Below are positions 13,327-64,000 of a stretch of 64,000 nt of DNA, piece by piece. Position 1 is the first letter of the stretch, and every line of letters starts with the position of its first letter. The DNA comes from Candidatus Parcubacteria bacterium (GTDB lineage: Bacteria; Patescibacteriota; Minisyncoccia; Phycocordibacterales; PALSA-1337), in contig JBDLTF010000003.1 of NCBI GenBank assembly GCA_039799225.1, forward strand, positions 6,606 to 70,605, read 5' to 3'. Under the pieces are notes generated by a model. That model was not told where the DNA came from, did not search any database, and saw nothing but the letters and a program-made list of their open reading frames with translations. Both the position numbers and the translations under genes were made by a program.

Positions 13327-13330
13327 ATCA

Positions 13331-20370: not shown

Positions 20371-20529
20371 GGAACAAGTTTACAGGGAAATACATTGTAT
20401 GCAAAGAGGAGACGTAATTCATTAACTTCGATTTTTCAATGACAGGGGTCCTTGTGGTACATAGCTAGGTACTAGAAACTGCTTCAAAAATATGGTACTT
20501 TTACTGCGCCTATAACTAAATGGTCTGTT

Positions 20530-21330: not shown

Positions 21331-21337
21331 ATGTAGC

Positions 21338-21366
21338 AAAATACCCAGATAAATCTGGGTATTTTA
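21338..21366 (+). terminator. Rho-independent terminator after the DUF3800 gene
   Basis: atacccaga-taaa-tctgggtat followed by TTTTA. A second hairpin (ggtccgcaatgcggacc) follows. Confidence 0.5.
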
Positions 21367-21574
21367 CCGGTCCGCAATGCGGACCCCGGGGCTTGATGCC
21401 CATAGGTATAATATAACACATTATTCTGCATGTTACAAAAGGTGTGAATAAGTCTAAAATACGTAGATTTAGCACAACTAAATCTACTTAAACTTCCTTC
21501 TCAAGAGCAGTACATCCTATTAAAAAATATCTATTACGCCATTGCCATCCTTTGTCCTTTCTAGTATCATTCTC

Positions 21575-21770
21575 TATACAGAAGTCGTCACAGCTACCAC
21601 CTGTGATCGGGAATTCCCCGAGTCCACGGACCCAATCTGAAGAATGAGTGCCCGCACCCGCGGGAAACTCGGTGGAACCGCGAGGAACAGTGTTCTCCGC
21701 CCGAGTATATGCGTGAATTTTTCATGCGTATACTCGGGCGTATTTTATTTATTGAGCATTATCACTATCA
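21575..21770 (+). promoter_or_regulatory. T-box riboswitch leader of thrS (T-box sequence plus intrinsic terminator/antiterminator)
   Basis: GGTGGAACCGCGAG matches the T-box consensus GGUGGNACCGCG. Immediately downstream is a strong terminator hairpin cgcccgagtatatgcg...cgcatatactcgggcg followed by TATTTTATTT, whose 5' half can pair with the T-box (antiterminator). ACC (Thr codon) triplets occur in the upstream stem region. Confidence 0.55.
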
Positions 21771-21775
21771 TCACT

Positions 21776-49501: not shown

Positions 49502-50014
49502 TCACTTTTCGCATACTCCCCACAATCCTCTCTGTTCCCTTTTCGTCTCTTGTTCTATATTCCTGAATTCTTTCTGGAATAGGTAGGGTTTTCCGAAAGT
49601 ATATTCACGTGCAAAACCATTCTTGAGTAGATACTCATTCCAGAATGTTCCGTCCTCGAGATATACGTATGCGAGATATCGATCATACTTATCTCGCTCT
49701 TCCCTGTTCGGATTCAATTTCAAGCGCACTGCATGTCCGACCAACATCCTCTTGGTCTCATCTGATGCTTTCTGTCCGTAACACTGCGCCGGTTTGCGCG
49801 GATCGACCGTCTCTGGCGTGTCGATGCCGAGCATGCGGACAGTGATGATATGTTTCTCGATATTTACCTTGAATGTATCTCCGTCCATAACGGATACGAC
49901 CTGATAGAGCTCGTTCTCATTAATAGTTATAACTGACGCGGCATACGCATAGTACCCAGCCACGCACAACACACCCGTAACGACCGAAATCGCCACGATT
50001 TTCTGATATTTCAT
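49502..50014 (-). CDS. Thermonuclease (staphylococcal nuclease homolog), membrane anchored
   Basis: SNase core VMDGDTFKV...RMLGIDTPE...RYLAYVY...G.A, preceded by an N-terminal TM helix. Confidence 0.75.
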   Translation of the reverse strand: MKYQKIVAISVVTGVLCVAGYYAYAASVITINENELYQVVSVMDGDTFKVNIEKHIITVRMLGIDTPETVDPRKPAQCYGQKASDETKRMLVGHAVRLKLNPNREERDKYDRYLAYVYLEDGTFWNEYLLKNGFAREYTFGKPYLFQKEFRNIEQETKREQRGLWGVCEK

Positions 50015-50239
50015 TGTAGGTTCTTACCGGTGACGCGATGGAGCAGGTATCTTCCCTTGGGGAGAAGTATACCAGAAAAAAATACTAGATGCGGGGTGTC
50101 TCGGGTTTGAACCTTTTGGTTCATTGCACCACAAGGCTTTTCGGACACTTTTTATGATATCACATCGACGCGTCTCGAGCAGACCAAAAAGTGACAAAAG
50201 TGACACAGAACAAGGAAAAAGATTACATGTGACTGTAAC

Positions 50240-50485
50240 TTAATGAGGCAATACCTTCATTAAAACGTCGCTCATAAATCCCATGACCTTCTCTACATAA
50301 AGGTAATTAACAATTTTAGTATAGACAGGAAAGAAATCATAGCGAAAAATAATAGAACCTATCAACACTATAAGAATAGCAACAAAAAGCAACTTAGAAG
50401 GTTTAAATACAAACCGAATTAGTTCCTCGAGTATAGGATTTTGATGATAGTCATTTTTTCTTCTTTTTCTCATGCGGCTTGTCAA
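50240..50485 (-). CDS. Hypothetical small membrane protein (last gene of the TIR cassette)
   Basis: 81 aa with one or two TM helices (LLFVAILIVLIGSIIF). AT-rich. Confidence 0.35.
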   Translation of the reverse strand: MTSRMRKRRKNDYHQNPILEELIRFVFKPSKLLFVAILIVLIGSIIFRYDFFPVYTKIVNYLYVEKVMGFMSDVLMKVLPH

Positions 50486-50494
50486 TAATGTAAC

Positions 50495-51202
50495 TTAGAA
50501 TGTGATATTGTTTTCCACTATCATCCTCCTAAGCTTCCGAAAACCTTCCCAAGCTTTCATATTGCAGTCTTTAATTTTATGAGACCCACAAAAACACTTG
50601 CTTCCGCCATCTACTCTCTCGCCTCTGAATAATACTCTTTCTACTCGTTCCCATGCATGTTTCGCCTTTTTTAATTTACGGATGCAAGCTTTAGCATGTT
50701 CTACTGCCTGTTGAGAATCATAAAATGAATGGAAGGCTCCCGCAGCGCCATGAAGATACTCATCCCATGGCCACGCTTCATGTTCATCATAAAACCGCTG
50801 TCCGTAAAGAAATGGAGTAACTAATTCTTCAATGAACATAGGCAAAGAATAGTTTTTTCTGTTCAAAAAGTCGATTTCTTCCGTTGGTCCACAGAGACAG
50901 GCCTTGCCGACAGGATCTGTATAGAAGTGTCTATCTACATTTGAATTGATTTTTTCATCGAGCACCTTAAGTTTCGGAAGAAAATTCTTATCGGTAGATA
51001 GAGTAATGACGACGCCATATGAACCTGACAAAATAACTCCAGAAGCCGTTTGATCGCGAAGGGTGAGAGGTGTGAAGGTGTTGTTTGCTTCGTCATATGC
51101 ACCAGAGAATATAAACTCTCCCAAAATCTCCGTTTCATCATCGTTAAACTTTAACGTCGGATGATGTATGATCAACCATTCTTTATCGGCCTCGGTTACC
51201 AT
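50495..51202 (-). CDS. Hypothetical protein with two C(L/F)CG motifs immediately downstream of the TIR gene; candidate effector of unknown fold
   Basis: No recognisable SIR2, Macro, SLOG or nuclease motif. Contains GKACLCGPTEE and GSKCFCGSHKIKDC. Its start overlaps the end of the TIR gene by about 20 nt, suggesting translational coupling. Confidence 0.4.
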   Translation of the reverse strand: MVTEADKEWLIIHHPTLKFNDDETEILGEFIFSGAYDEANNTFTPLTLRDQTASGVILSGSYGVVITLSTDKNFLPKLKVLDEKINSNVDRHFYTDPVGKACLCGPTEEIDFLNRKNYSLPMFIEELVTPFLYGQRFYDEHEAWPWDEYLHGAAGAFHSFYDSQQAVEHAKACIRKLKKAKHAWERVERVLFRGERVDGGSKCFCGSHKIKDCNMKAWEGFRKLRRMIVENNITF

Positions 51203-51797
51203 GATTGTTATCACCCCATGGACGTGTAGGTGTAAAAGAGCTTCCTGTCGCATAAGTTGCCACCGCAACTGATCCAGTAGACATATGAGTGCTTGCTTTC
51301 AGTTTCGTCTCTCCTTTGTGATCTGTTCGTGTTTGGAAAGCATCTTCTCCCCACTGTCCAAGATTTTTGATGCCGTTATCCATCACCCAGTCATAGACTT
51401 TACAGATTGAGGAGAGAGGAGTTCCATCAGCAAGAATGATTTTGTCGAATGGATTTTGTCCTGCAACGTCAGTTTTACTATCGAGATTTTTTACATTGTG
51501 AATTTGGACTCCAACCAATCCATTCCCACGCTCCCAACTCTGACGAATCTCGTAGCGTACCCAGTCGCGCTCAGAGGTTTCTGCGCCGATGAGAACGACG
51601 GTAACAGATGTAGATTTAAGCTGATCGTTAATCCATCGCTTGATTGCATCTGGCCCTTGTTGTTCGATCTTTTCCCATTCTACGGAATCTATGACGCCGT
51701 ACTCGTCTTGATCGGCGATGGCGTGGCTATTACGTACCTGAGCCGCTCGTTGCGAATCTCGTTCGTAATGAAAACTGTAAAATGTTTTTCGTGCCAT
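51183..51797 (-). CDS. thsB: ThsB-like TIR domain protein (DUF1863/TIR-like, Thoeris ThsB family)
   Basis: The N-terminus MARKTFYSFHYERDSQRAAQVRN, TSVTVVLIGAETSERDWVRYEIRQSWERGNGLVGVQIH and NPFDKI align block by block with Bacillus ThsB from memory (MAKRVFFSFHY...VRN; TSVTCVLIGSKTFERRWVRYEI.KS.ERGN...GVHI; NPF). Confidence 0.7.
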   Translation of the reverse strand: MARKTFYSFHYERDSQRAAQVRNSHAIADQDEYGVIDSVEWEKIEQQGPDAIKRWINDQLKSTSVTVVLIGAETSERDWVRYEIRQSWERGNGLVGVQIHNVKNLDSKTDVAGQNPFDKIILADGTPLSSICKVYDWVMDNGIKNLGQWGEDAFQTRTDHKGETKLKASTHMSTGSVAVATYATGSSFTPTRPWGDNNHGNRGR

Positions 51798-51800
51798 ATT

Positions 51801-52193
51801 TTATAGAATTAAAATAATGATAATGTGAATCAGAGCCAAGCCTCCGTAAAAAAGGGTTGCTGTTGTCGAGAAAGCACAACAACCGACTACTCCCAACTTT
51901 TCAAATGATTTTATGTCCATTGAAAAATCTATCTGTTCCGTTGTCTTTTTGCGGACCTCGTCGTACAATTCCCGGAACGCTTTTTCTTTTGAGAGATAAT
52001 AGGCATCCAGGAGCCAGAAGAAGAGAAGCACGCCGAGGGAAGTGAAGATGTATGTGCAGTCAATTTCTTTAAAACTGAGCAACACGAGAGCGCCTATCAC
52101 CGTTACAGTCCATCCCTTCAGCAGAAAGGAGTTACTCGCCATACGGTTGATTGCCTGCTGAACAAAATCCAAATGTTTTAGTTTTGCTTCCAT
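51801..52193 (-). CDS. Small membrane protein (3 predicted TM helices), 4 nt upstream of the TIR gene
   Basis: Three hydrophobic segments (TVTVIGALVLLSF, LGVLLFFWLLDAYYL, ALIHIIIILIL). No known domain. Confidence 0.4.
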   Translation of the reverse strand: MEAKLKHLDFVQQAINRMASNSFLLKGWTVTVIGALVLLSFKEIDCTYIFTSLGVLLFFWLLDAYYLSKEKAFRELYDEVRKKTTEQIDFSMDIKSFEKLGVVGCCAFSTTATLFYGGLALIHIIIILIL

Positions 52194-52199
52194 ATGTTT

Positions 52200-52433
52200 T
52201 TAATGAATACGGTCTTTAGGTGGACAGTCGTCATTTCCGAAACTGTCCTTGTCCTTTATCTGACCCTGTCGGTTATGATAAACTGCTTCTGTTTCATTGT
52301 TCTTCGCAAGCTTGTGCGTCTTATCCTCTGAAGCCGCTTGAGTACGGTGAACAGATACGGGTTTTTCCATTCCTTCCTTTTTTACTGCCCAATCACTTCC
52401 CCAAGGAACACTGTGAAAATTTTTCTTTGCCAT
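52200..52433 (-). CDS. DUF2188 family small protein
   Basis: MAKKNFHSVPWGSDWAVKKEGMEKPVSVHRTQAASEDKTHKLAKNNETEAVYHNRQGQIKDKDSFGNDDCPP matches the DUF2188 consensus (hVVP..dGWAVK.EGa.r.s..h.Tk.eA...g..LAkn...El.iH..dG.I...dSYG.DP.PP). Confidence 0.65.
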   Translation of the reverse strand: MAKKNFHSVPWGSDWAVKKEGMEKPVSVHRTQAASEDKTHKLAKNNETEAVYHNRQGQIKDKDSFGNDDCPPKDRIH

Positions 52434-52577
52434 TTTTTTAAAAAATATGTTAATAAATTTAATAACTTCGCCTTTCCTCTTCTTCCTATGATTTTAATTC
52501 CACTCAATCTATTTGAGTGCTTCGCTCTAGGGGTGTGAGAGATCAACTTGATTACATCTTATCACGACACAATACTT

Positions 52578-52614
52578 TTGAACACTTGCATATGCATGTC
52601 TTACATGTTATATT
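52578..52614 (+). promoter_or_regulatory. Putative sigma-70 promoter of the lexA-like gene with an overlapping 10-bp perfect palindrome (candidate operator)
   Basis: TTGCAT(-35)-17 nt-TATATT(-10) ends 9 nt before the ATG. The palindrome TGCATATGCA (52587..52596) overlaps the -35 hexamer. Confidence 0.4.
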
Positions 52615-52623
52615 ACTAATGAC

Positions 52624-53292
52624 ATGGAAAAAGAAACCCTGACACCGAAGCAGCAGGAATTATATTCTTATCTGAAAGAATATAATGAGAAACATAATGA
52701 TTCACCGACCCTTAAGGAAATGGCTGCATCCATTGGAGCGAACTCGTTGAATAGTGTTGTTCAATATCTTAAAATCCTTGAGAAGAAGAATTATATTTTG
52801 AGGACAAAACATGCACGAAGAAATATTGAACTACGCAAGATGATCTCGTCTGGTCTAATGGAATGGCCAGTTAGTATTCCAGTCATCTCCTCCGTTGGCT
52901 GTGATAATCTAAGTGTCGTCGCGTACGAAGAATATGATGAGTTTATTGATGTTGATAGAAAACTTGTTGAAAATAAAGGTGACGTTGTTGCTGTACGAGC
53001 TGTAGGCAATAGCATGAATGATGCTGACATTCACGACGGTGATTATGTCCTTATTGAGCTAACAGATAATGCAAAAAATGGAGATAGAGTGGCTGCGATT
53101 ATTGGTGATATGGTTACAGTGAAAAAACTAGAGAAAAGAGAAGGTTTGGTAATTTTACGCCCTGAATCAAAGGATCCAAAATACAGGCCAATTATTTTAA
53201 ATGAAGACTTTAAGATCGCTGGAAAAGTAATTTGTGCAATTCCAGGAACAAGTATGGACATCACGGAGGTAGTTCCCATAAGACCACAATAA
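52624..53292 (+). CDS. lexA: LexA-type repressor (winged-HTH plus S24 self-cleaving peptidase)
   Basis: N-terminal LexA DNA-binding pattern (LTPKQQELYSYLKEY...SPTLKEMAASIG.NSLNSVVQYLKILEKKNYI). The S24 catalytic Ser/Lys dyad context is GNSMNDADIHDGDYVLIE...GDMVTVKKL. Confidence 0.8.
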   Translation: MEKETLTPKQQELYSYLKEYNEKHNDSPTLKEMAASIGANSLNSVVQYLKILEKKNYILRTKHARRNIELRKMISSGLMEWPVSIPVISSVGCDNLSVVAYEEYDEFIDVDRKLVENKGDVVAVRAVGNSMNDADIHDGDYVLIELTDNAKNGDRVAAIIGDMVTVKKLEKREGLVILRPESKDPKYRPIILNEDFKIAGKVICAIPGTSMDITEVVPIRPQ

Positions 53293-53296
53293 ATAC

Positions 53297-53662
53297 ATGG
53301 CAAAGAAAAAATTATTTTTGACAGATTTGACGCTTCATTCCAAGGAACATCGTGCTACGCCTAATTTGGAAAAGGCCGAACAAAGAAAGGAAAACGGGTA
53401 TTCTTCTCCGCGTCTATATTCTCCCCAGCTCAACAAGGATGACTTTAAAATATATCCTGATGGAAAGTTTGAAATTATCATAAAGTTGCCTCCCGATATC
53501 CAAAAGGGCTTAGATAGCGGAGAAATCGAAATTGTGATACCAAAAGACGGTCTGCTCGTCTATGCAGGCAAAGATATGATAGAGAAGGCGAAACAGCTTG
53601 AAGAAAAGAAGAGGCGAGAAATTATCCACAGGGGCCGTAGACAAGTTTGGCGTAAAGAGTAG
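53297..53662 (+). CDS. Hypothetical protein (121 aa), co-directional with lexA
   Basis: ORF with a 4-nt spacing from the lexA stop. Lys/Glu-rich. No motif recognised. Confidence 0.35.
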   Translation: MAKKKLFLTDLTLHSKEHRATPNLEKAEQRKENGYSSPRLYSPQLNKDDFKIYPDGKFEIIIKLPPDIQKGLDSGEIEIVIPKDGLLVYAGKDMIEKAKQLEEKKRREIIHRGRRQVWRKE

Positions 53663-53816
53663 AATGTAATTACAATTGAATATTACTGGTGGTGTACCGC
53701 ACTCTGTGCTATGCCCACTTCGTAGGAAAGTCTAAAAGAATCACTCGTTGGTTTTTTAAGTCTTCTTCGCGAAGTGGGCTTTCTCGTTTATTTATTAGTA
53801 ATTATCACTTAATAAT

Positions 53817-55097
53817 ATGAAAAATATAAATTTAGTCTGGCACTCCGAGCGTCGCCAAGTAAGTACACTCAAAGCGTGGGATCGAAATCCTCGCAAGATC
53901 ACAGCGCACAAGTTCAATCAGCTCATCAGGCGCATCAAAAGCCGCGGCTTCCACGATGTCATTAAAATCGATACCGACGGCACTATCCTTTCAGGTAATC
54001 AGCGCAAAAAAGCCTTGATCAAGCTCGACATCAAGGAAGTGAATGTCCTTGTTCCTAACCGCAAGCTCACGGATGAGGAACGCGATCGCATCGGCATTGA
54101 GAGTAACACCAACGACGGCGAATGGGATTACGAGGGTTTGAAGTCCTTTGATCTCGACACACTTACCGACGTCGGCTTTGACACAAACAGCCTTTCTGAA
54201 ATGTGGAGCGAAAACCTCACGGCGGATGATGACGACTTCGATCTTAATGAGGAAATCAAGAAAATAACCGAGCCAAAAACCAAGCTCGGAGATCTCATCG
54301 TCATGGGCAATCATAAGCTGATCTGCGGAGATTCAACCAAACCCGAAGTCCTTAAAAAACTTTTCGGTGATGATCGTGCTTCGATGATATACAGCGACCC
54401 TGTCTTCAACATCAACTACTCATATAAATCAGGATTGGGCAGCAAGAAGAATTATGGTGCAACCGTTAATGACACTCGCACCGACACGGAATACCATGGC
54501 TTCCTGAAAAAGAGCATGGTATGCGCCTTGTCGGTCACGAAACCTGATGCTCATATCTTTTATTGGTCCGACCAATGCTACATATGGCTCATACAGACCC
54601 TGTACCGTGAGCTTAGTATCGAGAACAAACGTGTATGTCTGTGGATCAAGAACGGCTTTAGTCCTACGCCTGCCATAGCGTTCAATAAGTGCTTTGAACC
54701 CTGTATCTACGGAATCCTTGGTCAACCTTATCTCAATGACGGCATCCAAAATCTCAACGAGGTATCTAACGGCAATCTAACTACAGGCAACGACATGCTC
54801 AATCAGATTTCCGACATCTGGGCAGTGAAGCGATTGTCAGCAAAGGACTACGAACACGCCACAAGCAAGCCTCCAAAACTCCATGAAAAAGCGATTCGTC
54901 GCTGTACTCGCCCAGGTGACATTATCTTGGACAGCTTTTCGGGATCGGCAAGTACCATGATTGCGGCCGAGCAGTTGAAGCGTAGGGTTTATGCAGTCGA
55001 GCTTGAACCCCGCTTCTGCGATCTTGCGATCAAAAGGTACGAGAAGCTCACAGGCAAAAAAGCAAAGATAATCCACAACTACCATGAAGAAAAATAA
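53817..55097 (+). CDS. ParB-like nuclease domain fused to a DNA (N6-adenine/N4-cytosine) methyltransferase, phage-type
   Basis: N-terminal ParB/Srx-like block (LKAWDRNPRKI...GFHDVIKIDTDGTILSGNQRKKA). The C-terminal beta-class amino-MTase has motif IV SDPVF before motif I DSFSGSASTMIAA. Confidence 0.7.
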   Translation: MKNINLVWHSERRQVSTLKAWDRNPRKITAHKFNQLIRRIKSRGFHDVIKIDTDGTILSGNQRKKALIKLDIKEVNVLVPNRKLTDEERDRIGIESNTNDGEWDYEGLKSFDLDTLTDVGFDTNSLSEMWSENLTADDDDFDLNEEIKKITEPKTKLGDLIVMGNHKLICGDSTKPEVLKKLFGDDRASMIYSDPVFNINYSYKSGLGSKKNYGATVNDTRTDTEYHGFLKKSMVCALSVTKPDAHIFYWSDQCYIWLIQTLYRELSIENKRVCLWIKNGFSPTPAIAFNKCFEPCIYGILGQPYLNDGIQNLNEVSNGNLTTGNDMLNQISDIWAVKRLSAKDYEHATSKPPKLHEKAIRRCTRPGDIILDSFSGSASTMIAAEQLKRRVYAVELEPRFCDLAIKRYEKLTGKKAKIIHNYHEEK

Positions 55098-55503
55098 AGT
55101 CAAAGATAATTTCCTCGCAGAGTTAAGAAAGATACCAATCGTACAGGTTGCCTGTGAACGCATCGGGATTTCAAGGAATAGTGTCTATCGTTGGAAAAAT
55201 ACCGATGAGGCATTTTCTGATGAAATGGACAGAGCACTCGCAGAGGGAGAGGCATTGGTGAATGACCTCACTGAAAACCAGCTTCTCACCCTCATCAAGG
55301 AAAAGGAGTGGTCAGCCATATCGTTCTGGCTTCGTCATCGTAATCCGAAGTTTAGGGAGCGTGTTGAAATCACGACGAAGATGGAAAGTGACGGCAAGCT
55401 AACAGCTGAGCAAGAATCAATCGTGCGGGAAGCACTACGTCTTTCTGCAGTCACACCTATTCAAATTATTACTGATAAAAAACAAGACAATGAACCAAAA
55501 TAA
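55084..55503 (+). CDS. Phage terminase small subunit (HTH)
   Basis: HTH VACERIGISRNSVYRWKN. It overlaps both the preceding MTase and the following terminase large subunit, the typical terS-terL arrangement. Confidence 0.6.
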   Translation: MKKNKVKDNFLAELRKIPIVQVACERIGISRNSVYRWKNTDEAFSDEMDRALAEGEALVNDLTENQLLTLIKEKEWSAISFWLRHRNPKFRERVEITTKMESDGKLTAEQESIVREALRLSAVTPIQIITDKKQDNEPK

Positions 55504-56986
55504 AGAGATAGCGCAAGAGCTGGTCGAAGCCATGATCAAGGATCAGAAGGTCCGCATAGCGATCACTAAGAAAAGTCATTGGTACTTTTTCCATTTCTAT
55601 TTTGCAAAGTATGTCAAACATGCAACAGCAGAGTTCCAAAGAGAAATTATCCGCCTCACAGAGAACGAGGATATCAAAAATTTCTTCATTGTTGCATTTA
55701 GAGGGTCGGGAAAATCTACCATAATTACGACTTCGTATGTTCTCTGGGCGATTCTTGGAGAGCAGCAGAAAAAATTTATCCTCATTCTAGGTCAGACAAG
55801 AAATCAGACAAAACAATACATGATGAACATCAAGCGAGAGCTTGAAACGAATGATATTCTTAAAAGAGATCTCGGTCCGTTTCAGGAAGAAAGCGATGAG
55901 TGGGGTGCAACCTCTATCGTGTTCTCACAACATAATGCACGAATAACTGTAGCATCAACAGAACAAGGTATTCGCGGGCTGCGACATAATGAGCATCGCC
56001 CCGACCTCATTATTGGGGATGATATCGAAGACCTCAACTCGACAAAAACAAGGGAGAGTCGACAAAAAACTTTTGAGTGGCTCACGGGAGAAGTAATTCC
56101 TGCTGGAGACCAGAATACCCGCCTGATCCTCATCGGAAACCTTCTTCATGAAGACTCTCTCCTTATGAAAATCAGGGAGAAGCTTGAGAAAAAAGAAATG
56201 AAAGGGGTGTTTAAATTCATACCCCTACTTGATTCCGAGGATAAAAGCATGTGGCCAGGGAAATACCCAACCCTTGAATCAATTGAAGAAGAAAAGCAAA
56301 GGACAGGAAGCGAACAATCGTGGCAAAGAGAATACCTCCTCAGGATTATTCCAACTGAGGCGCAAGTGATTCATAAGGAATGGATCCAATACTACGATGT
56401 GTTACCACCGCGAGGTGCTGAAAACTACGAATATACATGGGCAGGAATTGATCTTGCAATATCAGAAAAAACTACAGCAGACTATACCGCGATTGTCGGA
56501 GCGCAAGTGCATGGCAGACGTAAAAAAAGAAAAATATATATTCTTCCTAATCCCATTAATCAGAGGATGCTCTTTCCAGACATTGTTCGGTTGTGCAAAG
56601 ACTATATCAAAAATGTGCTTCATAACGGCAAGCTTGTAATTGAGAGCGTTGCTTTTCAAGCCTCCCTAGCGCAGTTGCTTCATAGCGAAGGTCATTATGT
56701 GGAGGGGGTGCCTGTTCATGGAGACAAGCGATCGAGGCTTGCTATGACCTCATCACTTATACAAAATGGCTTCATACTATTTCCAAAACAAGGAGCGGAA
56801 CAGCTCATTCAGCAGCTTGTCGGATTCGGAGTTGAAAAACATGATGACCTAGTCGATGCTTTTACTCTACTTATTCACAAGCTTATGGAAGAAGATAACC
56901 AACCAAGACCGAATATCGGATGGTTCGATACGCGAACAGGCAGATTTGAGTGGGCGATCAAGTACGATGACGACGAAATCGTGTAG
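55490..56986 (+). CDS. Phage terminase large subunit (ATPase plus nuclease)
   Basis: Walker A FRGSGKST, Walker B-like LIIGDDIED and a C-terminal RNase H-like nuclease region (GIDLAISEKTTADYTAI...VESVAFQ...DDLVDAF). Confidence 0.75.
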   Translation: MNQNKEIAQELVEAMIKDQKVRIAITKKSHWYFFHFYFAKYVKHATAEFQREIIRLTENEDIKNFFIVAFRGSGKSTIITTSYVLWAILGEQQKKFILILGQTRNQTKQYMMNIKRELETNDILKRDLGPFQEESDEWGATSIVFSQHNARITVASTEQGIRGLRHNEHRPDLIIGDDIEDLNSTKTRESRQKTFEWLTGEVIPAGDQNTRLILIGNLLHEDSLLMKIREKLEKKEMKGVFKFIPLLDSEDKSMWPGKYPTLESIEEEKQRTGSEQSWQREYLLRIIPTEAQVIHKEWIQYYDVLPPRGAENYEYTWAGIDLAISEKTTADYTAIVGAQVHGRRKKRKIYILPNPINQRMLFPDIVRLCKDYIKNVLHNGKLVIESVAFQASLAQLLHSEGHYVEGVPVHGDKRSRLAMTSSLIQNGFILFPKQGAEQLIQQLVGFGVEKHDDLVDAFTLLIHKLMEEDNQPRPNIGWFDTRTGRFEWAIKYDDDEIV

Positions 56987-56993
56987 TCAATTC

Positions 56994-57665
56994 CTATTGA
57001 AAAGTGACACTCAAATCAGATACCTTATTTTCTCCTTTTGTTGATCTAAGTATCTGAATAACTGTTGACCAGATATAAGGATTCGCAACTGGAAATTGAA
57101 GGCTTTTTGTGCGCGTCTCAGATGTGATCTCAATAGTATTGAGATAAGTTTCTACTGTCATTATCTTATCTAACAGAATACTTCTATTCTCCTTAGTACC
57201 CAAGTACATGATTCTCTTGTTTGTGATTATAAGCTGTCCAGTATCAATATCCCTCCATTCTTGATGGCTCTCTGATCTGCTTGAACTTCTACCAATAACA
57301 ACTCCCTTGGCCAGACGCACCCCTCCGAAGCCACCTACGGTCTGCCGTACTGCACGTGTTTCCTGCAATTTGGTATTTTCAGATAAAAAAGCTTGTTCAT
57401 TTGCATCAAGCAAAGCATTAGTTTGAATTATCGGTAGCTTACCGTCTTTCTTTATCTTATCAACAAAACTATTTGCTTGGGTGGCTATAAGTTCCTTTCT
57501 CTTGATCTTGGTGTTTTTGATATTCCAGCGAATCAGTATGATGATGGCGATAAAAATACCGAGGTATTTACTTATTGCGAAGAATACAAATATCGATGCG
57601 ACGATTCCCCAAAAACAAGGTTCTTTGATTAGATCACTGACGAAGGTGGATTTAGTGTTTTTCAT
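56994..57665 (-). CDS. Hypothetical membrane-anchored protein (2 TM plus soluble domain; possible bacterial PH-like domain)
   Basis: Two N-terminal TM helices. No catalytic motif recognised. Confidence 0.35.
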   Translation of the reverse strand: MKNTKSTFVSDLIKEPCFWGIVASIFVFFAISKYLGIFIAIIILIRWNIKNTKIKRKELIATQANSFVDKIKKDGKLPIIQTNALLDANEQAFLSENTKLQETRAVRQTVGGFGGVRLAKGVVIGRSSSRSESHQEWRDIDTGQLIITNKRIMYLGTKENRSILLDKIMTVETYLNTIEITSETRTKSLQFPVANPYIWSTVIQILRSTKGENKVSDLSVTFQ

Positions 57666-57680
57666 TTGGCATGCTCTATA

Positions 57681-58523
57681 CTAAAAACTTATCGCCTCAT
57701 GGTAATTGTTTCGACTATCAATCTCGTGTTCCGAAGTCAGGAGACTCGGTAGATCCCTAGAATAAAAGCTAGACCAATTAATCTTGCTAAAGAGCGGTCG
57801 GGCAATTGAATAGACAATTGCAACATCATCCTTCTGGTTGCCGTATTTATCTTTTACTGGTAGATATGACCAAAGAATGATGTCACCAAAATCTTCAGAT
57901 AGAGGAAATACTGCCCTAAAGACTTTTGCGGCATCATCGTGCATAGATCCCTTCAAAAGATTCGTCGTGAGGTTTTCATCTGAATTAACCTTTATGAACA
58001 AGCCAGAAACTGAATCTGTAGATTTATATCCAGATTCGGTGAGTTCGACTGGCTTATATTTGCTTATCTCAATGCTTATTACGCGAGGCTTATCAGTATT
58101 CGTTGTGGCCTTAAGACTATTTTCGATTGCACCTTTTATTTTTTCTTCAAGTGTCTGTGGTTGAGGTGGTACGACTGGAGCAACCTGTTCTGGTACTGGT
58201 TGGGCTACCACAGGCTGACTAGATACTGGTGTTGCTACAACTTCATCTGATTTGAGATTAAAACCAGCAACAGCTAATAATACTAACACCAATAAAATTT
58301 TAACATTTCTACTCAAATTAACCTTAAGTTGCGAACTTATCTTGCTCATTATCGGAGGAATCAAGATAGCGGAGGCAAGTAAGAAAACAAGCCCCGAAAT
58401 TGGGCTTGAGAAAATATTTACCAAACCCGTAAGAGCAAAAATAATACCGAGAAACCACCCAATAATATATCCGATGGTTATATTTTTCGTCTTGCCATCA
58501 GAAGACGGATTTATGTTGTTCAT
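57681..58523 (-). CDS. Hypothetical membrane protein with a Pro/Val/Gln-rich linker
   Basis: Three N-terminal TM helices and a PVVAQPVPEQVAPVVPPQPQ linker. Confidence 0.35.
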   Translation of the reverse strand: MNNINPSSDGKTKNITIGYIIGWFLGIIFALTGLVNIFSSPISGLVFLLASAILIPPIMSKISSQLKVNLSRNVKILLVLVLLAVAGFNLKSDEVVATPVSSQPVVAQPVPEQVAPVVPPQPQTLEEKIKGAIENSLKATTNTDKPRVISIEISKYKPVELTESGYKSTDSVSGLFIKVNSDENLTTNLLKGSMHDDAAKVFRAVFPLSEDFGDIILWSYLPVKDKYGNQKDDVAIVYSIARPLFSKINWSSFYSRDLPSLLTSEHEIDSRNNYHEAISF

Positions 58524-58909
58524 TTTATTACTTGATAGGTCTTAATAAATCCAAGGCGGGTAACAGAAATCCCGCCGCGGGTAGAGACCGAAGTCTCTCA
58601 TACCAGTTTCCCGATATGGCCTATCAAGCGACCCCACGACGGGGTTTCTGAACTTGATAGGACTTCTTTCACCATGCCCTGTAAGGGGTTTAGGCTACTT
58701 CTCATATTCAGTTGTATCTACATAATACAAGCAAATCTTGTATCAGTCCACATTCTATCGCATATCAATTCTTTTGCTAAGATAGGTTGCCAACAAGTCA
58801 TTCTATACGCTCACTGATGTTAAATTTTGTTGAAAATTCGACTTGCCCATGCTAATGTAATTTCGGACAGCAATAAACCAAAACAAACGAAAGAAATTGA
58901 AAGGTTGAC

Positions 58910-60136
58910 ATGAAAATCAAAAATTATCTGCAGTTACTGACAGTTGCATTAATGGGTCTGCTTTCTATTCAGAATAGCAGCGCGGTCGAAGAACAATTCA
59001 CGATCTATGATCTGGATTCTACTCAGGACAAATGGTACGGAACGGTTTACAACAAGGATGGCAAGAATAACGACATTTTGAGGGTCGGCGGTTGGGGTGA
59101 TGCTTATCACACCCTAATCAAGCTACCATCCTATGTGACGGTACCTCCGCGAATATTCATTACCCGTGCTCGGCTTTACCTCTATTCGTACGGTTCGACA
59201 AAGCCTACACCGATGAGAAAGTATTTCGTCCTCAATAATTGGACCGAAACCTCAACAACGGATCATAACAGTCTTAGTCTTGCTACGGTAAATGGTGTCA
59301 ACAACGAGTTACTAGCACCACCTGAGAATGGTGAGTACGTGATTGATATCACCGGAGAATTCAGTCTTTGGATTTCCGGCGACTACGGGAACCATGGGAT
59401 ACGGCTTAGTCCTCTGGACACCAATAATAAATTCAATCACTTCCTTTCCTCGGAAAATACGCGCGGATTTGGCAAGCCAAGAATAGTCGTTGACTATGAA
59501 AGGCTTCCCGACTTCAAACTACCACTTCCTGGAAATAAAAGGTGGAGACTGCACGTCGAGGCTGGGGGTAAGGAATTTGATCACCAAACGCATATTGATC
59601 CTTTCCATACTGGCAAAACTTATTATTCACTGGACTTCGGTCCGCAGTGGGCGCCTTTAGTTGGTGGGACACTAACGACAGCTACTGATGTTCCTATCTA
59701 TGCGGCAGCAGGTGGAAAAGTTGTCGATGTGGCATTGAATGCGAATAATCCGAATGGATGGTTTGTGAAGATCGACCACGACGGCGATGGCAAGCTAACG
59801 ACCGGCTTTCAGACGGTCTATATCCACCTGAAGAACCAACCACTTGTCAGCAAAAATAGCTTTGTTAGGCAGGGTGACAAATTGGGAATCATGGGAACAA
59901 CAGGTGTAGATTCAAATGGCGATCCCACATCTACAGGTATTCATCTCCATATGACGTTCTATTACAAGAACGATGGAGGTCTTGATATCATGAATTATGA
60001 TTCTCCTTATCTTAATACTCTTCGAATGGAGGGTACGTCTATCAAGAACTTCAAACTCGGAACGACTTGGAATTCTGGCAGCAGCCTCTGGACTCCGATA
60101 GTTGTCTCTCCTTCTTCCAATAACACTGGAATGTAA
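58910..60136 (+). CDS. Secreted M23-family metallopeptidase (LytM-like)
   Basis: Signal peptide, then the HxxxD...HxH zinc motifs (KIDHDGDG ... TGIHLHM) in M23 spacing. Confidence 0.7.
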   Translation: MKIKNYLQLLTVALMGLLSIQNSSAVEEQFTIYDLDSTQDKWYGTVYNKDGKNNDILRVGGWGDAYHTLIKLPSYVTVPPRIFITRARLYLYSYGSTKPTPMRKYFVLNNWTETSTTDHNSLSLATVNGVNNELLAPPENGEYVIDITGEFSLWISGDYGNHGIRLSPLDTNNKFNHFLSSENTRGFGKPRIVVDYERLPDFKLPLPGNKRWRLHVEAGGKEFDHQTHIDPFHTGKTYYSLDFGPQWAPLVGGTLTTATDVPIYAAAGGKVVDVALNANNPNGWFVKIDHDGDGKLTTGFQTVYIHLKNQPLVSKNSFVRQGDKLGIMGTTGVDSNGDPTSTGIHLHMTFYYKNDGGLDIMNYDSPYLNTLRMEGTSIKNFKLGTTWNSGSSLWTPIVVSPSSNNTGM

Positions 60137-60192
60137 CAAAAAAAATTAGGCAGTTATTTCAGCAGGCACTTTCGGGTGCCTGTTTTTTTTAT

Positions 60193-61527
60193 TTACAATC
60201 CGTAATCACACTGAACTTTTAAATCTTTAGGATTGCCGGGTATTATTTTCCCTTCTAGAAATGAATGGTTAGCATCCTTGCCATACCCATTAATCAAAGC
60301 CTCGAATGTTTTAGGGTCAGCGCCCTCAACTTTAGCTGTCTTGTAATAAACAGCAACGGTGTCTTTAGAATATCTTCCGAGAGAACAACCTTCGTACGGC
60401 TGATCAGCGAGTATGATCAATTCTTTTGGATTTGCGCCTCGAACTAACTCTCCCTCAAAATACACTTTTGATACATCGAAAGCATATTGTTCGTAATATC
60501 TAGATTTATAGACATCAAAACTTGCAACATCAGCACCAGATACCAATTTACCCTTATAATAAACATTTCTGTCATCTTTAGCATAGAACCTGCCTGGATT
60601 AAAAGATACATCTCCATAAATCGAATACTTTGTTTCCATCAACTTAAAAGCATTCAAGTTTGCTTGTGGAATTAGCATTGAATCATAGTAGACTTTGTCA
60701 CTTCCTTTCACATAGAGTGAAAAAGGTAAAACGACTGGTGAGGTAATAGATAACCCTAAGAAAGAATCTCCTGAAAGACTGTATATTTTCTGGTCATCAA
60801 TAAAGGTTGTAATGCCAGGCTGTATATCATTAATCAAACGTAATTTTGCAGGATCAGTAATTGTAGTTACAAGCTTTCCTTTTTCATAAGGGAAAGTGCT
60901 CACATATACTTGGCTGTCATTACTCAATACAAGAAAATTATTAATATGTATCTCCTTTATATTTTTTTGATCCAAGTCATCGATTTTTCTTATGTTTTGA
61001 TTTTTATCGATTAGAAAAACATTATTACCACTACTGAACACAGCATAATCTGGAGTTTTTCTGAAGTCCTTGAAGGAATTCAGTTTTACAAAACTATGGC
61101 AATCACCTGCATCTCCGCCAAGGAAGGGTCGATTCTTTACTGTGAGTGAGAATATATAGTCAGAATTAGTCATTACCTCTGCTCCAGATGCGAGTTCGTT
61201 AGGGTTTATTGTAAGTATTAGATGACCATCCTTATCAAGACGATTAACCGTATTTCCTTCTTTAACCATTTTAATATATCTCGAGATATTTCCCTGATCA
61301 CCCTCAAGAACCGTAAGTGCTGAACAGGTGATGGTTTCAGAAGAACTTTTGATTACGTCATACGTAGAATACTTTCCAAAGAGAGTATAGGCTTCTTCCT
61401 TTTCTTCGTTAGGAGTAACTTCTTCCCCCATTTGCCCTTGATTCTTAATGGAAACACCCTTAAACACATAGGTTCCGATCAATAAAAGGGCTACTAGCGA
61501 CAATAGAATGAAAATTTTTTTAAGCAT
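60193..61527 (-). CDS. Secreted DKNYY-family repeat protein
   Basis: Signal peptide. C-terminal repeats of the DKNYY type (DDRNVYYKGKLVSGADVASF, KDTVAVYYKTAKVEGADPKTFE, GKDANHSFLEGKIIPGNPKDL). Confidence 0.6.
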   Translation of the reverse strand: MLKKIFILLSLVALLLIGTYVFKGVSIKNQGQMGEEVTPNEEKEEAYTLFGKYSTYDVIKSSSETITCSALTVLEGDQGNISRYIKMVKEGNTVNRLDKDGHLILTINPNELASGAEVMTNSDYIFSLTVKNRPFLGGDAGDCHSFVKLNSFKDFRKTPDYAVFSSGNNVFLIDKNQNIRKIDDLDQKNIKEIHINNFLVLSNDSQVYVSTFPYEKGKLVTTITDPAKLRLINDIQPGITTFIDDQKIYSLSGDSFLGLSITSPVVLPFSLYVKGSDKVYYDSMLIPQANLNAFKLMETKYSIYGDVSFNPGRFYAKDDRNVYYKGKLVSGADVASFDVYKSRYYEQYAFDVSKVYFEGELVRGANPKELIILADQPYEGCSLGRYSKDTVAVYYKTAKVEGADPKTFEALINGYGKDANHSFLEGKIIPGNPKDLKVQCDYGL

Positions 61528-61636
61528 ATGTGGATAATATCAGAATTGCGGGCTCCTGTTAAGCTTTACAGGAAATAGCTTTATGCTATTGTCTAAAAGG
61601 AAGTTCAACAAAAACCAATGAAAAATCATAAAGAAA

Positions 61637-63022
61637 ATGAAAAGAATACTGCTCACGGTTGTCCTATCTGCACTCTGTCAGTTCACATCCTTCTCAATCG
61701 GCCTCAATCTGCTTTATCCTACTGGTGGTGAAATACTGCCGGTTAATGGAAGGCATCCGATTGTCTGGACCAACTCATCAAACCTATTCGTTCAAATCTA
61801 TGTTGATTGGTATGACACCAACGATGTAGATCTTGTTACAAACAACGTTATCTATGCTGGCGTGCTTCCTGAAGGAACCAATACCTTCATTTTGCATGAG
61901 CCATCACGGTGGCCGACTGAATACAAATACAAGATTCGTCTCGACGGCGATACCAACGCAATCGTCTCGACGAGCGGCTTCGTCTTCATGACGAGTAACG
62001 CAACCTTCACAGCTACAATCACCAATCAGAGTCAGTGGCTGCCAAATCAGACGAGGTACGTGAATGTGTCGTGGGTTGGTTTCCAGAGCAATGACACCTA
62101 CGCACTAGTTCTTGAAAGTCCTGTGCTGGGTAAGGAGGGGTATGGATTCCTCGTAACTAACATTGCGATGGGGGCGGAGAGTGGAACCCAAACATTTGCG
62201 ATTCCGTATCCTTATGTAAACACTCCTGCTTATCCACCGTTCTCGTACGATGTCGCTGACGGCAGGCACCTATTCACCGTCTTCAATAAAAGGTGCGACA
62301 TCGTCACTACGTTTGGATCAATTGATATGGTGACTGCTGGACTCCGCATGTACTTGGGACCTGGCATTAAGAATTACATCTTACGAGGTGACACAGCAGA
62401 ATGCAGTACAGTTTATCTCGATGCAATTCTTGCGACCAACGATGTGAGTATTTCAAGTATTGGCGTCATCTTCACGAGCTACTCAAGCAATTGGATTTCG
62501 ATGAGGTCAGTTCTCAAGGACGGGTCAACACCTCTTTCGACCAACATCTTGGGCTTTGTGCCTTCGACTAACAGCCAGTATCATACGCAGGTTGCGTTTC
62601 CTGTAAACCTGACAGTTCCCATGGGTACGATTAAGGAACTTGGCCTTGAGTGTGAGGTTCTTTACGATTCAGGCCTCGGCGACTTCGTCTGGAATACAGG
62701 TGAGATCTCGACCAACCTCTTCGGAAGCGTCAGCGCGACCTATATTGGCGGTGCTACGATTAGTACCAAGGTTATTACATCATCGAGTGATTATGTAAAC
62801 ATTCTACAAGTCATCACTCCGAGATTCATTAGTTCTGGATCCGGAAGTAATTCGGTGGTCTTCGGAGTCTTCTGCAAGCCTTCGACGACCTACGACGTCG
62901 AGACGTCAACGAATCTCGTGAATTGGAGTACACTTTTCAGTACCAATAGTGTTGGGGACATGATGCAAATATCTATCCCTATCACGAACGGTAATCATTT
63001 CTTCAGATTGAAGCAGAACTAA
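61637..63022 (+). CDS. Secreted hypothetical protein (461 aa)
   Basis: Signal peptide and a beta-rich, Thr/Ser/Asn-rich sequence. A strong terminator (gctctgttgtc-ccttgcgg-atgacagagc+TTTTTTT) lies at 63042..63078. Confidence 0.4.
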   Translation: MKRILLTVVLSALCQFTSFSIGLNLLYPTGGEILPVNGRHPIVWTNSSNLFVQIYVDWYDTNDVDLVTNNVIYAGVLPEGTNTFILHEPSRWPTEYKYKIRLDGDTNAIVSTSGFVFMTSNATFTATITNQSQWLPNQTRYVNVSWVGFQSNDTYALVLESPVLGKEGYGFLVTNIAMGAESGTQTFAIPYPYVNTPAYPPFSYDVADGRHLFTVFNKRCDIVTTFGSIDMVTAGLRMYLGPGIKNYILRGDTAECSTVYLDAILATNDVSISSIGVIFTSYSSNWISMRSVLKDGSTPLSTNILGFVPSTNSQYHTQVAFPVNLTVPMGTIKELGLECEVLYDSGLGDFVWNTGEISTNLFGSVSATYIGGATISTKVITSSSDYVNILQVITPRFISSGSGSNSVVFGVFCKPSTTYDVETSTNLVNWSTLFSTNSVGDMMQISIPITNGNHFFRLKQN

Positions 63023-63220
63023 CTTCTCTGATCGGTTTCAGGCTCTGTTGTCCCTTGCGGATGACAGAGCTCTTTTTTTGTTACAAATTTCAATACGACC
63101 ACATAATAGATATGTAGTTCTGCATAGCTATGCACCACCAGTGGTTCTGTCATTAATTAATACATGCAAACACAAATGAATGCCCGAGTTGGTACCCCTG
63201 CCATACTAGCCCCAGTCAAA

Positions 63221-64000
63221 ATGAAGTACTGCATATATGCCAGAAAAAGTACCGAATCAGAAGAACGACAAATTCTTTCTATTGATTCGCAGGTCAAGGA
63301 AATGCTACAGCTTGCTGAACGAGAAAATATTGAAATCATAGATATCAGACGAGAATCCCATTCAGCTAAAGATTCAGGTCAACGACCGGTATTTAAGGAA
63401 TTACTTGAAGATATACGTCGAGGCAGATTCAATGGAATACTGACATGGGCACCAGATCGTCTTAGTCGTAATGCTGGTGACCTTGGCTCATTGGTAGACC
63501 TTATGGATCAAAAGCTACTTCTTGAGATTCGTACGTACGGTCAGCATTTCAAGAACTCGCCGAATGAAAAATTTCTACTCATGATCCTTTGCAGCCAAGC
63601 AAAGCTCGAGAATGATAACAAGGGTATCAATGTTAAACGTGGACAAAGGACAAGATGTGAGATGGGATTGAGACCAGGAGTAGCTCCTACTGGTTACCTG
63701 AATGAAAAGCGAAGCGATCGTAAATGTCATGCCAGCATAGACCCCGCACGAGCACCAGTTATTAAGAAAATGTTTGAAAAAGTTGCATATGAGAAATATA
63801 GTGGAAAGAAGATTTATATGTGGCTCAAGTTTGAGCTGAATTTTAGAACTGCTAATGGAAAGAAGCATTTAAGTCTCGGTAATATCTTCCGTATCCTGTA
63901 CAATCCTTTCTATTACGGCACATTTGAGTATCCAAAAGAAAGTGGTAATTGGTATCAAGGCAAACATGAACCAATAATCACCAAAGAATTATTTGATCAG
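63221..64000 (+). CDS. Large serine recombinase (resolvase/invertase catalytic domain plus recombinase domain), truncated by the window end
   Basis: Hand translation from the ATG at 63221 gives MKYCIYARKSTESEERQILSIDSQ (catalytic Ser motif) ... WAPDRLSRN ... the recombinase domain (GYLNEKRSDRK...YNPFYYGTFEY). There is no stop codon before the window end. Confidence 0.75.
   Translation, partial: MKYCIYARKSTESEERQILSIDSQVKEMLQLAERENIEIIDIRRESHSAKDSGQRPVFKELLEDIRRGRFNGILTWAPDRLSRNAGDLGSLVDLMDQKLLLEIRTYGQHFKNSPNEKFLLMILCSQAKLENDNKGINVKRGQRTRCEMGLRPGVAPTGYLNEKRSDRKCHASIDPARAPVIKKMFEKVAYEKYSGKKIYMWLKFELNFRTANGKKHLSLGNIFRILYNPFYYGTFEYPKESGNWYQGKHEPIITKELFDQ

Follow-up and report, generated by a model that had tools for sequence, protein, structure and literature searches.

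A conserved family of terminase-carrying, virion-gene-free islands at tRNA sites of Patescibacteria and its possible dependence on helper phages

The window analysed in this study, a 64,000-nt stretch of a Candidatus Parcubacteria contig (JBDLTF010000003.1), ends in a group of phage-type genes that comes without genes for a virus particle. We favour, at a probability of about 0.55, the reading that the segment from approximately 50091 to past 64000 is one copy of an integrative island family of Patescibacteria that inserts at tRNA sites and lives in a satellite-like manner, with a dependence on helper phages that we infer. The anatomical description of the family itself is put forward with high confidence. 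The island resembles a phage parasite more than a defunct phage, because intact packaging enzymes are kept without virus-particle genes, beside tRNA genes and together with defence cargo, and its most suitable classification is as a novel form of phage satellite or mobilisable island. An initial annotation of the window had proposed a prophage-like island and left three explanations side by side: a degraded prophage, a phage satellite resembling the phage-inducible chromosomal islands (PICIs), or an island whose structural module lies beyond the window. The island is more than a remnant; it belongs to a large, conserved family that carries terminase genes, lacks virion genes and ferries defence systems.

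The island family shares one colinear backbone

Relatives were collected with two anchors. The large terminase subunit (TerL) of the window was used as a probe and has relatives in 27 GTDB species genomes and 41 IMG/VR contigs, at 42-96% identity; all open reading frames (ORFs) of these TerL-anchored loci were clustered into families for the comparison of gene order. The independent anchor was Rec1, the large serine recombinase at the window end, which gave 80 metagenome-contig loci, 34 of them with at least 6 kb of upstream sequence. One colinear backbone runs through approximately 150 loci from Patescibacteria genomes and metagenomes. Its order is a left-terminal non-coding element (L150), an optional LexA-type repressor, a small variable ORF, a leader hairpin, a fusion of a ParB domain with a DNA methyltransferase (ParB-MTase), the small terminase subunit (terS), TerL and Rec1. 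The repressor is mostly divergent in the relatives and co-directional with the packaging operon in the window, and a second methylase accompanies the ParB-MTase in some loci. Between TerL and Rec1, which lie on the same strand, stand zero to six variable genes; in several loci Rec1 follows TerL directly, and the core measures only about 5.5 kb. Rec1 orthologues (59-97% identical) are found 3' of TerL in 38 TerL-anchored loci, and Rec1 is more conserved than TerL (59-79% versus 52-61% identity to the window proteins). No recurrent portal, capsid or tail family was found across the approximately 150 related loci.

The packaging module occurs in two forms. Among the 34 Rec1-anchored loci with sufficient upstream sequence, 19 carry the methyltransferase and TerL and nine carry the methyltransferase and terS without TerL, while the remainder have the methyltransferase only (one), TerL only (one) or neither (four). 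In the whole Rec1-anchored set, 15 loci have the methyltransferase without a TerL call; their layout is compact, in the order MTase-terS-(membrane protein)-Rec1, and tblastn detected no TerL remnant in them. We therefore recognise two stable architectures, one with terS and TerL and one with terS only.

The closest relative, locus L002, has TerL and Rec1 proteins 96% and 97% identical to those of the window and comes from a Patescibacteria metagenome-assembled genome (MAG); all other reference-genome relatives found with the TerL probe are MAGs of the Candidate Phyla Radiation (CPR). The MAGs that hold L008, L012 and L013 are labelled 'uncultured Gammaproteobacteria', and several others merely 'bacterium'; these labels probably reflect mis-binning or mislabelling of Patescibacteria contigs. 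Complete genomes with the island include OY970175.1 and JBKBPM010000001.1. Decayed copies are seen beside intact ones: L028 has a 42-aa C-terminal TerL fragment (10001-10126) next to an intact Rec1, and L002 has an internally deleted Rec1 remnant at 13297-13521. Five IMG/VR loci (L044, L046, L049, L051 and L052) contain two tandem TerL-family ORFs of about 510-560 aa between terS/MTase and Rec1, which is an unusual terminase duplication.

The packaging genes are intact and under purifying selection

The phage-type genes of the window are full-length ORFs throughout. Between the window and L002, at dS values of 0.36-0.93, the dN/dS ratio is 0.031 for TerL, 0.032 for Rec1, 0.067 for the methyltransferase and 0.091 for terS; the two membrane-protein genes that follow TerL, TM223 and TM280, give 0.063 and 0.116. 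In an alignment of 21 TerL sequences the Walker A Lys/Ser/Thr residues, the Walker B acidic residues and the acidic residues of the nuclease are all invariant.

These values bear on the idea of a degraded prophage, a temperate phage that has lost its structural module. The presence of phage-type genes without virion genes, the low GC content and the mere fragment of TerL in L028 would all suit such a remnant. However, the low dN/dS ratios of the backbone genes (0.03-0.09) and the invariant TerL catalytic residues rule it out for the backbone. Moreover, the same gene-poor architecture recurs in approximately 150 loci across Patescibacteria classes, none of them with a structural module, and in the shortest elements, of about 5.5 kb, nothing separates TerL from Rec1. 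This explanation, one of those left open by the initial annotation, is largely refuted, and we regard it as very improbable.

The genes that the initial annotation had named are all present, namely the repressor, the ParB-MTase, the overlapping terS and TerL genes, the membrane proteins, the M23 peptidase, the DKNYY protein, the secreted protein and the recombinase. Its remark that no portal, capsid or tail gene follows TerL also holds, as PHROG and Pfam scans of the ORFs at 52624-63022 gave no match to these families; PHROG matches labelled 'tail' or 'endolysin' are confined to weak ones caused by the M23 domain. What does not stand is the description of the M23 protein as lysis-like. It carries a signal peptide and has no holin partner, and is thus cargo rather than a lysis module.

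The ends of the island and the tRNA target

About 18 loci contain L150, with 70-87% nucleotide identity; its orientation is constant, and it always lies on the outer left side of the minus-strand cargo; in islands without left cargo it lies directly 5' of the ParB-MTase gene. Its left neighbours include trxB and the genes for ribonucleotide reductase, the ArsP permease, GST, PilB, PGI and LigA, and the same cargo is preceded by different host genes in L021 (PGI) and L022 (LigA). Since the left flanking genes vary by locus, L150 moves together with the element, whose left end it marks. No consistent RNA structure and no significant z-scores emerged for L150 from RNAalifold on either strand or from single-sequence folds, and it has no Rfam or tRNA match; it is therefore treated as a DNA site. 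A scan of IMG/VR for its exact repeat motif was uninformative, with only five stretches found, three of them in unrelated contigs. The island start given earlier, at 50015, lies near the true left end; comparison with the relatives places the beginning of the conserved element at 50091.

On the other side, the first tRNA 3' of Rec1 is on the minus strand in all 30 Rec1-anchored loci (Ser in 15, Gln in 12, Trp in 3) and likewise in the nine TerL-anchored loci with a visible tRNA (39/39 overall). The islands of the relatives stop at the 3' end of this tRNA gene. A hairpin-core TCTCG(A/T)GC is located 10-35 nt past the tRNA 3' end, sometimes with degenerate tRNA 3' fragments close by, and at each locus the core repeats of the two ends, CGTCTCG(A/T)GC, vary together. 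An exact 14-mer core is present at both ends in L016, the two cores of L018 are one base apart, and locus-specific cores are common to both ends in L032 (the deviant GACCCTTGTCGAG), L009 (GCATCTCGAGC) and L005 (ACGCGACT). Judged by their sequences, such co-varying cores are the attL/attR signature of a tRNA-targeting integrative element, with a crossover located only approximately, and Rec1 would be the enzyme acting on them. The L032 island is bracketed by two minus-strand tRNAs (3235-3324 and 18859-18931), a tRNA-Ser right after trxB and just left of L150 and a tRNA-Glu just right of Rec1, a layout that hints at tRNA loci as possible left flanks as well.

Direct repeats and a defined target, the hallmarks that a mobile element should leave, were thus located as co-varying pairs in relatives, while the window itself shows the left copy only, within 50091-50250. 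The sequence past the window comes from a 19.9-kb Logan contig that adds 1.9 kb and stops inside a second recombinase. It shows that complete Rec1 has 438 aa, ends at window-equivalent position 64480 and includes a Zn_ribbon_recom domain. Rec1 is followed by a second unit (window-equivalent 64489-65880; 12853-14244 in L001), in which a 63-aa ORF precedes a second, convergent large serine recombinase. In L002 and L079 the order is Rec1, the 63-aa ORF, a second recombinase, a ParB-like gene, a core-like TATCTCGAGC, tRNA-Ser and unrelated genes, and the window most likely continues past Rec1 in the same way. With this second recombinase unit after Rec1, the tRNA-side boundary of the window copy is placed a few kilobases past the available sequence. 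The recombinase of the second unit is only 58% identical between the window and L002, and the L002 unit (18838-21056) adds the ParB-like gene, of 285 aa; the second unit could represent an element of its own, stacked at a shared att site. The initial annotation had rightly recognised a serine recombinase near the right end, which is not the outermost gene; its start, previously set at 63221, is most likely 63164, as in the 438-aa orthologues.

The same data speak to a complete prophage with its structural genes past the window end. The window does end inside the recombinase, so that the right part of the element falls outside it, but the next 1.9 kb are taken by the small ORF and the second recombinase, the nearly identical L002 goes on to its ParB-like gene, tRNA-Ser and unrelated genes, and defence cargo and a tRNA, never virion genes, come after Rec1 in 30 Rec1-anchored relatives. 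A complete prophage is accordingly even less probable than a degraded one, and largely refuted as well.

Cargo slots and cassette exchange

Variable genes occupy three slots: the first separates L150 from the repressor, the second TerL from Rec1, and the third Rec1 from the tRNA. These genes are mainly defence systems, and cell-surface genes also occur. In the window, the first slot holds a TIR-domain protein and its membrane partner (a PDC-M50 pair), an E2-like gene and a DUF2188 gene, and the second holds membrane and secreted proteins. The TIR cassette had been taken for anti-phage cargo close to the left edge, which is borne out by its match to PADLOC PDC-M50 and by the recurrence of the E2-like and PDC-M50A genes in the same slot in L009. 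The cassette was also considered as Thoeris; the ThsB-like TIR protein is present, but the ThsA (SIR2/Macro-SLOG) effector is absent, and the genes match PDC-M50A/B instead. PDC-M50A proteins are further found in L056, L067 and L131, and an E2-like homologue occupies the same slot in L134. The DUF2188 gene likewise adjoins LexA in L153 and L157.

The large genes located 3' of TerL in some relatives are of defence (restriction-modification or DISARM-like) or helicase types. One set combines a PLD-SNF2 helicase with an Eco57I/MmeI-type methylase; others encode a type III restriction subunit, a McrB-like ATPase, a PIF1 helicase, DUF2779 proteins or the reverse transcriptases of diversity-generating retroelements (DGRs). 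DGR cassettes are a frequent cargo (L002 1431-3959; L009, L016, L023, L032, L041, L107 and L108) and comprise a reverse transcriptase with a GNLTSQ motif, small Avd-like ORFs and target genes. In L002, the ORFs at 2560-3000 and 3270-3959 present two C-termini with the pattern of an Asn-rich template versus a varied repeat.

Exchange of cargo is visible in the comparison with L002. The nucleotide homology between the two islands (89-93%) breaks at 58782 and returns at 62986. The block in between, with the M23 gene, the DKNYY or another gene and the 461-aa gene, is inverted in L002, and its proteins are 47-49% identical, compared with 93-97% for the flanking proteins. A conserved site 5' of Rec1, present also in L002, L003 and L080 and containing a palindrome, is a candidate Rec1 operator or recombination site. 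Exactly at the breakpoint, L002 has a second copy of this pre-Rec1 sequence (about 49 nt) together with a remnant of the Rec1 C-terminus, a sequence arrangement which indicates that Rec1-linked units have accumulated in tandem and been replaced. Swapping has also affected the repressor slot: the LexA proteins of the window and L002 are 30% identical, though both pass the LexA cutoff, while TerL is 96% identical.

Structured RNAs and repeat motifs

The window contains a full-length LOOT RNA, directly 5' of the TM280 gene and antisense to TerL. In matching position and strand, LOOT is found in eight further loci (Table 1), where the gene 3' of it encodes a small membrane or surface protein (TM280/F7 family), with Ltp-domain repeats in L003. 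A phage superinfection-exclusion lipoprotein is known to contain the Ltp domain. This arrangement suggests that LOOT is a cis-regulatory leader of the adjacent membrane- or surface-protein gene. In the literature searched, LOOT is described only as a metagenome-derived RNA.

A second structured RNA, a hairpin followed by a U-rich tract, is located directly 5' of the packaging operon. It is conserved in at least nine loci, and RNAalifold over nine of them supports 29 base pairs, with compensatory changes in 14. Paired cells make up 91.9%, compared with 38-50% in slid controls, and none of 500 shuffles reaches the observed values. The G-U pairs favour an RNA on the plus (coding) strand, and the hairpin has no Rfam match. 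It is a candidate terminator or attenuator that would insulate the packaging operon from the transcript of the repressor and of u121, the small ORF that follows it.

The palindrome TGCATATGCA lies about 30 nt 5' of LexA, at 52587. Palindromes of the form TGCAT-N(0-6)-ATGCA occur only twice in the 64-kb window (52587-52596 and 63121-63134; about 0.4 expected), the second about 30 nt 5' of Rec1, and the two may represent a shared operator. Counter to this, L002, L003 and L080 all retain the Rec1 palindrome, although L002 has a non-orthologous LexA. A 24-nt inverted repeat (88%) brackets LexA (52417-52440 and 53290-53313). As an inversion site it was set aside, for the repeat is explained by the DUF2188 and u121 genes both starting with ATGGCAAAGAAAAA (M-A-K-K). 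An inversion of LexA between the arms is conceivable, because LexA is co-directional in the window and divergent in most relatives.

Gene content of the window copy

The GC content drops from 0.474 in the host part of the window to 0.414 at 50091-64000, a discontinuity of the kind that the initial annotation had proposed to look for. Two more dips, to 0.42-0.43 against about 0.48, are seen at 4000-7000, starting right after a tRNA-Asn (4348-4423), and at 19000-22000; these may be further islands.

To the left of the element the gene order is ftsA, ftsZ, trxB and a gene for an SNase-family nuclease. The latter is just outside the element as delimited, between trxB and the left terminus. Its family is also present in L009, L011, L013, L023, L041 and L052, and SNase-fusion genes are cargo of related islands. 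Within the island, the window LexA exceeds the NCBI LexA equivalog TIGR00498 (131 bits against a cutoff of 110.95), and LexA adjoins the packaging module in more than 25 related loci. The u121 family recurs 5' of the ParB-MTase in relatives, and in others its slot is taken by different non-homologous genes (F8/F12, F23, F36 and F57); no domains were detected in u121 or its slot-mates. In the position of TM280, relatives have Ltp-domain or DUF4352-type surface proteins, the L003 counterpart matching Lipoprotein_Ltp at 7e-25. Rec1 has more than 8000 database relatives, of which the best 120 are at least 72% identical.

Table 1. Features of the window copy, of its left flank and of LOOT RNAs in related loci. 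Positions refer to the window unless a locus is named.
Feature	Position	Strand	Evidence and remarks
trxB	48577-49500		Host flank
SNase-family nuclease	49502-50014	-	Pfam SNase 1e-24; PADLOC SNc+LTD 1e-33; GC 0.458 (intermediate)
L150, conserved left-terminal non-coding element	50091-50250	.	160 nt
L150, tRNA-3'-like piece	50091-50113		Followed by about 50 nt of variable sequence
L150, att-like core CGACGCGTCTCGAGC	50166-50180		
L150, direct repeats AAAGTGACA x2	50188-50206		
L150, short palindrome	50222-50239		
Small membrane-protein ORF, 77-81 aa (slot 1)	50240-50485	-	Gene call on Logan contig; no family match in profile scans including PADLOC
E2-like (ubiquitin-conjugating-like) defence-associated protein (slot 1)	50495-51202	-	PADLOC E2 models, best 1.6e-29; called at 235 aa on Logan contig
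TIR-domain protein, ThsB-like, PDC-M50B (slot 1)	51183-51797	-	Pfam ThsB_TIR 3e-26; PADLOC ThsB 2.6e-60, PDC-M50B 3.9e-59
Membrane protein PDC-M50A, partner of TIR protein	51801-52193	-	PADLOC PDC-M50A 2.3e-44
DUF2188 protein (PADLOC candidate PDC-S16)	52200-52433	-	Pfam DUF2188 4e-14; PADLOC PDC-S16 2.8e-24
LexA-type autocleavable repressor	52624-53292	+	Pfam LexA_DNA_bind, Peptidase_S24; first gene of rightward operon
Small protein u121	53297-53662	+	121 aa; no Pfam, PHROG, PADLOC or NCBIfam match
Structured leader/terminator hairpin and U-rich tract	53699-53795	+	Main stem 53713-53779
ParB-N-domain / N6-N4 DNA methyltransferase fusion	53817-55097	+	Pfam N6_N4_Mtase 2e-23; phrog_498 1.3e-82; ParB-like PHROGs
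terS-like small terminase subunit	55084-55503	+	Several terS PHROGs, best 2.6e-10; overlaps both neighbours
TerL, large terminase subunit (ATPase and nuclease)	55490-56986	+	phrog_38 2.5e-81; TIGR01630 52 bits vs cutoff 41.65; intact
Membrane protein TM223 (slot 2)	56994-57665	-	Kept in L002, L010; no family match in profile scans including PHROG
Membrane protein TM280	57681-58523	-	280 aa; phrog_8263 5e-12
LOOT RNA (Rfam RF03000), full-length	58583-58696	-	74.5 bits vs gathering score 46.4, E 8.5e-13
Exchangeable cargo block (slot 2)	58783-63091	mixed	M23, DKNYY and 461-aa genes
Secreted M23 peptidase	58910-60136	+	Pfam M23; signal peptide
DKNYY protein	60193-61527	-	Pfam DKNYY
Secreted 461-aa protein	61637-63022	+	
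Conserved site 5' of Rec1	63092-63142	.	Palindrome TGCATAGCTATGCA at 63121-63134
Large serine recombinase Rec1	63164-64000	+	Pfam Resolvase, Recombinase; cut by window end
LOOT RNA, L002	13094-13207		
LOOT RNA, L003	2472-2602		
LOOT RNA, L007	7414-7527		
LOOT RNA, L020	20396-20514, 12157-12283		
LOOT RNA, L024	12021-12139		
LOOT RNA, L031	6190-6308		
LOOT RNA, L040	16354-16475		
LOOT RNA, L041	6663-6784		

Comparison with known elements

The PICIs, including the Staphylococcus aureus pathogenicity islands, resemble the island in their small size (5-20 kb here), in site-specific integration, in a repressor that heads a rightward operon, in the lack of virion and lysis genes and in the carriage of defence cargo in hotspots. 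A master repressor over a rightward operon together with an own terS, by which PICIs are recognised, is found here, and the closest architectural match to a PICI is the terS-only variant of the family. However, the integrase is a large serine recombinase and not the tyrosine integrase of the PICIs, and no primase/replicase-origin module was recognised in the island. In addition, most members carry a full TerL and the ParB-MTase, the repressor is of the autocleavable LexA type, and the hosts are Patescibacteria. The island therefore works most like a PICI and yet is not one, by virtue of its serine integrase and the lack of a replication module. Of the satellite or PICI-like origin first considered for it, the satellite part survives, whereas the assignment to PICIs in the strict sense does not, the presence of both terS and TerL being a further departure.

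The capsid-forming PICIs (cf-PICIs) also encode both TerS and TerL and control the translocation of their own DNA, but they possess portal, major capsid protein, protease and head-tail connector genes, none of which occurs in the island or its relatives. PLE of Vibrio cholerae is a satellite with a large serine recombinase that protects its host from phage. Unlike the island, it has a replication initiator and no terminase genes, targets a repeat element rather than a tRNA flank, and is confined to V. cholerae and the phage ICP1. Elements of the staphylococcal cassette chromosome (SCC) type, such as SCCmec, likewise insert at the 3' terminus of a conserved host gene, accumulate in tandem as units that bring their own recombinases, and are accompanied by defence cargo. 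The best curated match of Rec1 is in fact CcrB, far under the equivalog cutoff (106 versus 900 bits, NCBIfam). Nevertheless, the island targets a tRNA flank and not rlmH, has a single Rec1 instead of a CcrAB pair, and differs from SCC in its backbone of terminase, methyltransferase and LexA. Gene transfer agents (GTAs) and defective packaging prophages likewise keep phage-derived packaging genes in the chromosome under purifying selection, possibly over long periods. GTAs, however, retain a head-tail cluster beside the terminase, which the island lacks; the island is also set apart by its integrase, its att-like repeats and its differing locations in the chromosome.

The literature searched on prophages and satellites of CPR/Patescibacteria and on LOOT contains no description of this island architecture, which is an absence of evidence within that literature only. 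We tentatively suggest, at somewhat less than even odds, that the islands are the first recognised family of CPR phage satellites and form a distinct class, characterised by a tRNA-site serine recombinase, LexA control, TerS and usually TerL, a ParB-MTase, the lack of capsid genes and two dedicated RNAs (LOOT and the new leader), and serving as the main vehicle of defence systems and DGR cassettes.

Discussion

Beyond the observed anatomy, conservation, selection and end structure, a satellite-like life would involve induction, packaging and help from a phage, which we propose to proceed as follows. Rec1 would integrate and excise the island at the CGTCTCG(A/T)GC core beside the tRNA 3' end. 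The autocleavable LexA-type repressor would silence the island until DNA damage or phage infection, and the derepressed rightward operon would then have to read through the leader hairpin to express the methyltransferase, TerS and TerL. TerS would select island DNA for packaging, and the island TerL, or a helper TerL in the terS-only variants, would pump it into the procapsids of a co-infecting phage. The methyltransferase may pre-methylate the island DNA and so protect it in the next host, while the cargo would defend the cell and thereby pay for the upkeep of the island.

Several observations weigh against this scheme. No candidate for a helper phage was found among the GenBank phage or IMG/VR relatives of TerL. 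No bona fide phage has a TerL closely related to that of the island (the best GenBank phage match is at most 28% identical, to Mu-like phages), which leaves the compatibility of the island TerL with a foreign portal unexplained, and every IMG/VR relative of TerL shows the island architecture; these contigs were probably called viral on account of the terminase. A replication module of the primase/helicase-type Rep plus origin kind was not recognised in the window element by profile scans, remote homology being possible. Neither a circular or excised form nor terminal direct repeats were found on any contig examined. A relaxed scan for the core, with up to three mismatches, is not enriched (62 matches versus about 75 expected), and the core is short; the att assignment therefore rests on position, exact matches and left-right covariation. 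Finally, at the ftsZ-trxB locus that the window shares with L032, identities are 61% for FtsZ and 51% for TrxB, and 60% for TerL and 68% for Rec1. The element genes have thus diverged about as far as the host genes, which fits long residence and is compatible with a domesticated function.

The most serious alternative, though an unlikely one in our estimation, is such a domesticated, host-beneficial platform, a resident defence island at tRNA hotspots in which the methyltransferase, TerS and TerL serve the cell. They might do so by interfering with the packaging of phages that infect the cell, or by packaging adjacent DNA, in the manner of a GTA or of lateral transduction, into capsids encoded elsewhere. 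The similar divergence of element and flanking genes at the shared locus is what this predicts, and the strong purifying selection, the predominance of defence systems among the cargo, the lack of a replication module and of a related phage TerL, and the identical island context in 24 contigs of one population point in the same direction. However, a resident platform does not readily account for the different housekeeping genes that flank the islands, the att-like repeats and the dedicated integrase. Contigs with multiple and tandem copies (L057/L061 and L070), the decayed copies of L028 (TerL) and L002 (Rec1), and the swapping of the repressor slot, typical of mobile immunity regions, also argue for mobility.

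A transfer route without phages, through natural transformation or otherwise, with the terminase module as a conserved accessory operon of phage origin, appears quite improbable. Natural transformation is common in Patescibacteria, no helper is known, capsid genes are lacking, and the four of 34 Rec1-anchored islands that have no packaging module keep Rec1 and the tRNA-side layout. On the other hand, no part of the backbone other than Rec1 is as conserved as the packaging module, and two clean architectures under strong purifying selection are hard to explain without a role related to packaging.

The helper-dependent, satellite-like island thus remains our favoured reading. Patescibacteria make up a large share of bacterial diversity, and their mobile elements and phage biology are almost unknown. 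The island family supplies many serine integrases that are closely related to one another and whose candidate att sites adjoin tRNA genes, gives the orphan LOOT RNA a genomic context and adds a new leader RNA supported by covariation. It also calls for caution with viral catalogues such as IMG/VR, which appear to list these islands as viruses on the terminase alone. If our reading is correct, the family would offer a tangible way to study horizontal transfer and the movement of defence systems in reduced genomes, and it would predict that helper phages of Patescibacteria exist and provide a way to find them.

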